This document shows positions 35,001 through 36,540 of a stretch of 64,000 nucleotides of DNA, piece after piece (the first letter of the stretch is position 1; every line of letters begins with the position of its first letter). Location: assembly GCF_016026235.1 (NCBI RefSeq), contig NZ_CP065613.1; one strand, given 5' to 3'. Position numbers: made by a program. The stretch comes from Escherichia coli. Its GTDB lineage: Bacteria > Pseudomonadota > Gammaproteobacteria > Enterobacterales > Enterobacteriaceae.

Positions 35001-36540
35001 CCAGCAACGCCCAGAATTTGTGGGTTAACAAATACGATGTAGACCATCGTCAGGAAGGTGGTGAACCCGGCAATCACTTCAGTTCGTGCCGTAGTACCAT
35101 GTTCGCGCAGTTTAAAAACGCGTTCCAGCATCCCCTGACCAGAAGTCTGGGTGGTATGTTGATGACTCATTATCTATTTCCGAACAAGGAGGGAAAATCC
35201 GTCGCTATCGTATACCAAAATGCGACAATAGGCGCGTTTGTGAGAGACTTTTTTATTGGATTTACTTATACGGCAACGATTGCGTTGCGCAAATCGGCTC
35301 TACGAAAACGTTAAACTGATTAAAAAGGAAAGGCATGTCCCGGATAGAAGCGGTATTTTTCGACTGCGACGGTACGCTGGTCGACAGTGAAGTCATTTGC
35401 TCCCGCGCATATGTAACGATGTTTCAGGAATTTGGTATTACGCTCGATCCTGAAGAGGTATTCAAACGTTTCAAAGGTGTAAAACTGTACGAAATTATCG
35501 ATATTGTTTCCCTTGAACATGGTGTTACGTTAGCGAAAACAGAAGCTGAACACGTTTACCGTGCAGAAGTCGCTCGGCTGTTCGATTCAGAACTGGAAGC
35601 CATCGAAGGGGCTGGAGCGCTCCTGTCAGCGATCACTGCGCCAATGTGTGTGGTATCTAACGGCCCAAATAACAAAATGCAGCATTCTATGGGCAAGCTG
35701 AATATGTTGCACTACTTCCCGGATAAACTGTTCAGCGGCTACGATATTCAGCGCTGGAAGCCAGACCCGGCGTTAATGTTCCATGCGGCAAAAGCGATGA
35801 ATGTAAATGTAGAAAACTGCATTCTGGTTGATGACTCAGTTGCCGGTGCGCAATCTGGTATCGACGCAGGTATGGAAGTGTTCTACTTCTGCGCCGACCC
35901 GCACAATAAGCCGATCGTTCACCCGAAAGTCACCACCTTTACCCATCTTTCGCAGTTACCGGAACTGTGGAAAGCGCGTGGTTGGGATATTACGGCATAG
36001 TTCTTCACACTCCCTTCACTTACCCCGCTTAAATTGGCGCTCAAAGGTAAGTAAAGGGAGTTTGATATGTCTGTTTCACGTCGGGTAATACATCACGGAC
36101 TTTATTTTGCGGTTTTAGGACCGTTAATTGGTGTTCTGTTTCTTGTCCTCTACATATTCTTCGCAAAAGAACCGCTGGTTCTTTTGGTAATAATACAGGT
36201 ACTTCCATTGTTTCTCTTATTGTCGATTACTACGGGAGCTATTCCTGCATTGTTAACCGGCGTGATGGTCGCCTGTCTGCCGGAAAAGATCGGGTCACAG
36301 AAAAATTATCGTTGTCTGGCTGGTGGCATAGGTGGCGTCGTTATCACCGAGATCTATTGTGCAGTTATTGTACATATTAAGGGCATGGCTTCCTCGGAGT
36401 TGTTTGAAAACATTCTTTCTGGTGACAGTCTCGTTGTCCGCATCATTCCTGCATTGCTGGCAGGTGTGGTGATGAGCAGAATCATTACCCGTCTGCCCGG
36501 ATTGGATATTTCATGTCCTGAAACAGACTCTTTAAGTTAA

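Follow-up and report, generated by a model that had tools for sequence, protein, structure and literature searches.

The motif TTCACACTCCCTTCAC at positions 36004-36019 (+ strand) of the window, i.e., of the complete stretch of 64,000 nt of E. coli DNA analyzed here, is a perfect cre tag of the form TTCACN6TTCAC, as read directly and recovered by a motif scan. These 16 nt very probably constitute the CreB operator of the cbrB-cbrC promoter, with CreB binding and CreB dependence being taken from the literature. Since the window originates from E. coli and cbrA, cbrB, and cbrC are published CreBC genes, control of cbrBC by CreB via this tag is supported but already known. The additions to the published cre tag are modest and consist of its conservation across genera, a TAnnnT hexamer at a fixed offset of 10 nt, an extended half-site CTTCAC, and a repeat that sequesters the Shine-Dalgarno sequence of cbrB.

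The cre tag and the CreBC regulon

The term "cre tag" was reportedly defined by Avison et al. in 2001, and Cariss et al. are said to have dealt with the cre tag and the CreBC regulon of E. coli in 2008 and 2010. The gene yieI (cbrB) was presumably found originally by means of this very tag. According to the literature consulted, promoters of the cre regulon are marked by the cre tag TTCACnnnnnnTTCAC as the signature to which CreB binds (PMC3660660; PMC3962086), and CreB binds cre tags in vitro, which is stated for tags in general (PMC3962086). The genes cbrA, cbrB, and cbrC belong to the CreBC regulon and are induced jointly with creD; upon exposure to colicin M, log2 values of 5.7, 5.2 (approximately 37-fold), 4.3, and 3.8 are given for creD, cbrB, cbrA, and cbrC, respectively, and yieH is not mentioned among the colicin M-induced genes (PMC3599342). 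Furthermore, a creC-activated mutant over-expresses the cre-regulon genes in a CreB-dependent manner, and YieJ/CbrC mediates colicin E2 tolerance (Avison laboratory, bioRxiv 10.1101/615310).

The motif scan of the window returned exactly two perfect copies of TTCACN6TTCAC, which occupy 7876-7891 and 36004-36019 of the + strand. By chance, 0.13 copies per window are expected, and two or more copies were reached in 2 out of 100 dinucleotide shuffles. In case of one tolerated mismatch, 6 copies were observed in the window and 4.3 expected; this corresponds to the chance level, and only the perfect copies are therefore informative. One of the mismatched copies, TTCACCCGAAAGTCAC, is located within the 3' end of yieH at 35918-35933, 86 bp upstream of the perfect tag, and is likewise taken as a chance occurrence in view of these counts.

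The cbrB tag begins 3 nt past the stop codon of yieH, and its end lies 47 nt ahead of the cbrB ATG (36067). The perfect tag that the initial annotation had claimed for 36004-36019 was thus found exactly there, and the spacing to cbrB, given as about 50 bp, could be specified. The first tag of the window, TTCACAAGGACTTCAC at 7876-7891, ends 46 nt ahead of the ATG of cbrA (7938), and the same arrangement asserted for both genes agrees to within 1 nt. Both tags are co-oriented with their gene and promoter-proximal. Since 28 kb separate the two tags and each serves a different transcription unit, it is correct to speak of two independent CreBC-controlled promoters in the window, where CreB control as such is known from the literature.

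Genomic context and transcription unit

Several E. coli chromosomes match the region 35300-37200 with 100% identity, and RefSeq annotates yieH, cbrB, and cbrC in them; the gene coordinates follow the RefSeq entry for such an identical genome. The upstream, co-oriented gene yieH (35335-36000, +) encodes a 6-phosphogluconate phosphatase and is separated by 66 nt from cbrB (yieI; 36067-36540, +), the first gene behind the promoter, which encodes an inner-membrane protein (RefSeq; precomputed Pfam assignment PF26516, CBRB). It is followed by cbrC (yieJ; 36589-37176, +; RefSeq), encoding a colicin E2 tolerance protein (PF03691), and by the convergent gene yieK (37238-37960, -). Scans for tags, promoters, and terminators gave no match in the 48-nt gap between cbrB and cbrC, and cbrC is thus probably co-transcribed with cbrB. 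The convergent genes cbrC and yieK are separated by a terminator hairpin, AGGCCGGA...UCCGGCCU plus a U-rich tail, at 37196-37233 (-19.4 kcal/mol, z -4.6); with its U-rich tails it probably acts as a bidirectional terminator. The gene behind the other tag, cbrA (yidS; 7938-9002, +), encodes an FAD-dependent oxidoreductase (PMC3599342 and annotation).

Promoter geometry

A putative -10 hexamer, TAAATT, is located at 36030-36035 (+), exactly 10 nt past the tag, and is predicted from this geometry. A scan of the yieH-cbrB spacer with the sigma-70 consensus gave no complete promoter, and when the hexamers located 16-18 nt upstream of TAAATT are compared with TTGACA, 0-1 of 6 positions agree, i.e., a -35 element is missing. 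This absence of a sigma-70 consensus promoter fits activator dependence. All 14 cbrB-family promoters have a hexamer of the type TAnnnT at exactly this 10-nt distance downstream of the tag (TAAATT, TAATCT, TATCTT, TATTGT, TACCTT, TATTTT, TATCCT, and TACTTT), and so does cbrA, where TAGTCT at 7902-7907 (+) is the predicted -10 hexamer. From the succession of tag, 10-nt gap, and TAnnnT, a CreB-dependent transcription start is predicted near 36042-36045 (+), 7-10 nt past the -10 hexamer.

In promoters of the PhoB type, the operator stands in for the -35 element, with 10 bp between it and the downstream -10 hexamer, and the binding mode proposed here for CreB is modeled on regulators of the OmpR/PhoB family. 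Phosphorylated CreB would occupy the two TTCAC half-sites, 11 bp apart, as a head-to-tail dimer, and this site, ending 10 bp ahead of the weak -10 hexamer TAAATT, would serve in place of a -35 element. With the -35 element replaced in this manner next to a weak -10 hexamer, RNA polymerase would initiate at cbrB only when CreB is bound. The transcript is expected to start at approximately 36042-36045, to extend through cbrB and cbrC, and to end at the hairpin at 37196-37233.

The site resembles the Pho box of PhoB-controlled promoters (e.g., pstS and phoA), since both comprise a direct repeat with 11-bp periodicity bound by a regulator of the OmpR/PhoB family, and an operator 10 bp upstream of the -10 hexamer that replaces the -35 element and makes an activator necessary, which for cbrB is deduced from sequence. 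The half-sites differ (CTGTCAT in the Pho box, TTCAC in the cre tag), as do the regulator, here CreB, and the signal. The blr tag in the beta-lactamase promoters of the Aeromonas BlrAB system consists of the same TTCACnnnnnnTTCAC and is recognized by BlrA, an orthologue of CreB (PMC3660660), but its targets are beta-lactamase genes of another genus. With the cre tag of the E. coli CreBC regulon, the site in the window shares an identical consensus, the orientation, and the target genes (cbrB = yieI, cbrC = yieJ), and it is indeed the same site.

CreB is probably not the only regulator of the cbrB promoter, considering the reported occupancy of this region by NsrR. A ChIP-seq peak of NsrR covers the yieH-cbrB spacer in strain CFT073, and binding was also detected by ChIP-chip in K-12 (PMC5320621). 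The published predicted NsrR site AAAGGGAGTTTGATATGTCTGTT, to which the window is identical in sequence at 36053-36075 (+), overlaps the Shine-Dalgarno sequence and the start codon of cbrB (PMC5320621). This points to a second, nitric-oxide-linked input to the promoter.

Conservation of the tag across genera

A homologue search with CbrB returned only near-identical E. coli variants, which are of no use for footprinting. CbrB homologues with 30-42% identity were obtained from an exhaustive profile search, and their contigs as well as seven named genomes were compared; the genome contig scan, which yielded 7 loci, relied on a single peptide pattern and is sufficient for the named species, not for statistics. 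Most of these cbrB homologues follow a Lactamase_B_2 gene (PF12706) rather than yieH, and in case of Klebsiella spallanzanii the Lactamase_B_2 gene is missing.

In all genuine cbrB-family loci examined, covering at least four genera, a perfect or one-mismatch tag was observed, in each case 47-52 nt ahead of the start codon. A perfect tag is present in Silvania confinis, S. hatchlandensis, Citrobacter youngae, and the metagenomic lineages L011, L012, L014, and L018. The one-mismatch form TTCATcgtctcTTCAC (TTCAT) was seen in K. spallanzanii, in three genomes of Citrobacter sp., and in a single metagenomic lineage (L015-L017). With 1.92 bits per column, the half-sites are the most conserved columns of the cbrB-family promoters, followed by the -10 hexamer (1.32 bits), the spacer of the tag (1.12 bits), and the flanks (0.5-0.64 bits). 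Since a C precedes each half-site in the alignment, the motif can be extended to CTTCACn5CTTCAC, a form which at the E. coli cbrB gene starts at 36003.

Two apparent CbrB homologues from the protein collections were discarded as database artifacts. P0128 on contig L010, which mimics 69% identity, is E. coli sequence in which every C is read as T, as after bisulfite treatment, and P0137 on contig L013, which mimics 32% identity, is E. coli sequence in which each A stands as G and vice versa, giving rise to a spurious "TTCGC" tag.

On contig L012 (642-1177), where the cbrB homologue lies beside a yieH-like gene, both the tag and the 19 nt immediately preceding the ATG are identical to E. coli. 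The first 10 or so codons are conserved as well (MAVLRRIIHH compared to MSVSRRVIHH), and the remaining protein is 37% identical. This looks like the replacement of a gene body behind a retained regulatory region.

Distribution within E. coli

Of 5426 complete E. coli genomes, 4274 (approximately 79%) possess the yieH-cbrB junction, which falls into three main alleles, each of which was checked by one or two examples, namely NCTC9064 (identical to the window), K-12, ATCC 25922 (B2), and AZ159. The tag is perfect in all of these examples and thereby in all three alleles. The 66-nt spacer of the B2 type carries 5 substitutions, all of them outside the tag. ATCC 25922 contains cbrB only, and B2 strains lack cbrC. 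In strains of the O157:H7 type, espY4 is situated behind yieH, neither cbrB nor the tag is present, and similarity to the window ends at 35994. As the O157-type strains without cbrB are also devoid of the tag, the tag is part of the variable bgl-yieJI island (PMC2646131) and not of the core gene yieH.

Insertions of IS1 or IS3, or deletions, interrupt cbrB or cbrC in several E. coli strains (36067-37176; L004, H5-H7), in line with reports that the bgl-yieJI island decays frequently. Furthermore, in the 3' two-thirds of yieH (35640-36000), cbrB-carrying and O157/Z-locus strains of E. coli share only 83-89% identity, a divergence far above that typical for the species. It appears that either the boundary of the island or an old tract of recombination reaches into yieH.

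An inverted repeat covering the tag and the Shine-Dalgarno sequence

The cbrB tag is embedded in an inverted repeat with 20-nt arms that are 90% complementary and 21 nt apart. The 5' arm (36005-36024) covers 15 of the 16 bases of the tag and is complementary to the Shine-Dalgarno sequence, and the 3' arm (36046-36065) ends 2 nt before the ATG and contains the Shine-Dalgarno region AAAGGGAG of cbrB (36053-36060, +; read from the sequence), which lies 6 nt before the ATG. RNA from 35990 to 36075, as it would result from read-through of yieH, folds with -32.2 kcal/mol (z -5.5; none of 200 shuffles is as stable), and across folds the stem-loop ranges from -27.6 to -32.2 kcal/mol (z -4.7 to -5.8). 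In the same type of calculation, no structure (approximately 0 kcal/mol) was obtained for the leader that extends from the predicted start to the ATG. Downstream of the stem follows UUUGAUAUGU with 6 U in 10 bases, i.e., a weak U-tract UUUGAUAUG, due to which the inverted repeat cannot be called a terminator. The terminator scan of the spacer, which is limited to loops of 3-8 nt, gave no match at the inverted repeat, and no Rfam family matched within 35800-37300.

The B2 allele retains the hairpin (z -4.9), and so does L012, next to yieH and ahead of the homologue with 37% identity; on L012, the pair 36023:36047 has become T-A instead of C-G in a compensatory change, and one further pair no longer forms. 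On L014, the U-tract is UUUUUAU, and other homologues have no U-tract. The Shine-Dalgarno sequence pairs with bases upstream of the predicted start in 12 of the 14 cbrB-family promoters; the tag-bearing contigs L011 and L018 show no hairpin upon RNA folding. In the Citrobacter/Silvania/Klebsiella group, it is not the spacer of the tag that is complementary to the Shine-Dalgarno sequence, but a separate arm, TCCCTTCAG, which directly follows the -10 hexamer and is also located upstream of the predicted start. A covariation test with nine promoters gave no compensatory pairs for the hairpin of the Citrobacter group (z -0.1 to -3.9, with several values close to zero), and the structure in this group thus relies on conservation and energy only. 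No comparable structure (z 0.0) is found at cbrA, the upstream gene of which is divergent.

A function of the 3' arm as a second, inverted CreB site was considered and rejected, since its minus strand deviates from the tag at 3 positions and degrades further on L012, where the pairing is kept. This arm is constrained in any case, being the Shine-Dalgarno sequence.

A related situation was noticed at the creC-creD junction of K-12 (L009, 15109-15192). There, the 3' end of creC contains the creD tag TTCACCGTCACTTCAC, after which come two degenerate repeats, CTTCAA at a step of 10 nt and CTTCCC at a step of 9 nt. A hairpin formed by CACATAGTCTTC and GAAGACTATGTTG hides the Shine-Dalgarno sequence and ATG of E. 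coli creD (z -2.7). The complete 16-mer of the creD tag, including its spacer, is identical to the cbrB tag of C. youngae and of L014.

Possible insulation from yieH and alternative explanations

It is tempting to speculate that the inverted repeat insulates cbrBC from its upstream neighbor. RNA reading through from yieH would carry both arms and form a strong hairpin, leading either to termination or to a block of cbrB translation. RNA initiated with the help of CreB would begin between the arms and leave the ribosome-binding site free. As a net outcome, the output of cbrBC would follow CreB and not yieH. We put forward tentatively, judging the odds to be somewhat below even, that the hairpin terminates or translationally silences yieH read-through and that CreB-initiated RNA escapes. 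With slightly greater reserve still, we suggest that the CreB operator may double as an anti-Shine-Dalgarno element and that this represents a recurrent insulation design in cre-regulon promoters behind co-oriented genes, for which the arms of the Citrobacter/Silvania/Klebsiella group and the creD hairpin, alongside E. coli cbrB, are the basis. As in known hairpins that sequester ribosome-binding sites and in insulating terminators, the upstream anti-Shine-Dalgarno arm proposed for cbrB pairs only in the longer transcripts. In contrast to those hairpins, the arm at cbrB coincides with the DNA operator of the activator, and the role of the hairpin is a deduction. Alternatively, the stem, which lies 5 nt past the stop codon of yieH, could be opened by a ribosome that finishes translation at this codon, and cbrB translation would thereby be coupled to that of yieH.

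This coupling is also one of the points that speak for cbrB-cbrC being mainly the tail of a yieH-cbrB-cbrC operon, with a tag that merely modulates and a promoter that is not independent. The genes share a strand, the gap amounts to only 66 nt, and no canonical terminator was called by the scan. This explanation is nevertheless improbable, given that colicin M induces cbrB approximately 37-fold (log2 5.2) with no reported induction of yieH (PMC3599342), that a hairpin of -32 kcal/mol sequesters the Shine-Dalgarno sequence in read-through RNA, and that the same module of tag and -10 hexamer precedes cbrB homologues behind unrelated genes, in K. spallanzanii even without the Lactamase_B_2 gene. 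The repeat may furthermore suggest that the element is primarily an RNA structure, i.e., a terminator or attenuator hairpin of yieH with an incidental likeness to a cre tag, because it is strong and spans 15 of the 16 tag bases, because yieH needs a terminator, and because Z-locus strains carry, as seen by eye, a different repeat (CTTACACATCAG ... CTGATGAGTAAG) after yieH. Yet in Citrobacter, Silvania, and Klebsiella the tag lies outside any hairpin and the anti-Shine-Dalgarno arm downstream of the -10 hexamer, L011 and L018 retain the tag without a hairpin, and the half-sites are the most conserved columns, which together leave very little room for this idea. The least credible explanation is a chance match of 10 specified bases without regulatory role, with cbrB driven by another signal. 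Approximately 9 perfect matches are indeed expected on both strands of a 4.6-Mb genome (9.2 million positions / 4^10), and the window contains one-mismatch copies at a frequency expected by chance, but two perfect copies in 64 kb contrast with 0.13 expected, both are located 46-47 nt before published CreBC genes, and the tag is kept at a like distance across genera with diverged flanks, by which chance is effectively refuted.

Biological implications

The identification of the cbrB tag re-identifies a published CreBC operator and leaves existing knowledge unchanged. The CreBC regulon contributes to colicin tolerance, to E2 via CbrC and to M via CbrA, as well as to envelope-stress and beta-lactam tolerance. 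A module composed of tag, 10-nt gap, and -10 hexamer is conserved among enterobacterial genera, and the succession of CTTCACn5CTTCAC, 10 nt, and TAnnnT provides a sharper search pattern for the prediction of CreB regulons. Within the species, this module travels with cbrB in a variable island that is present in approximately 79% of the complete E. coli genomes and absent from O157-type strains. The overlap between operator and anti-Shine-Dalgarno arm at cbrB is a modest, previously unreported detail, and it offers a testable hypothesis according to which a stress gene may be insulated from its housekeeping neighbor.
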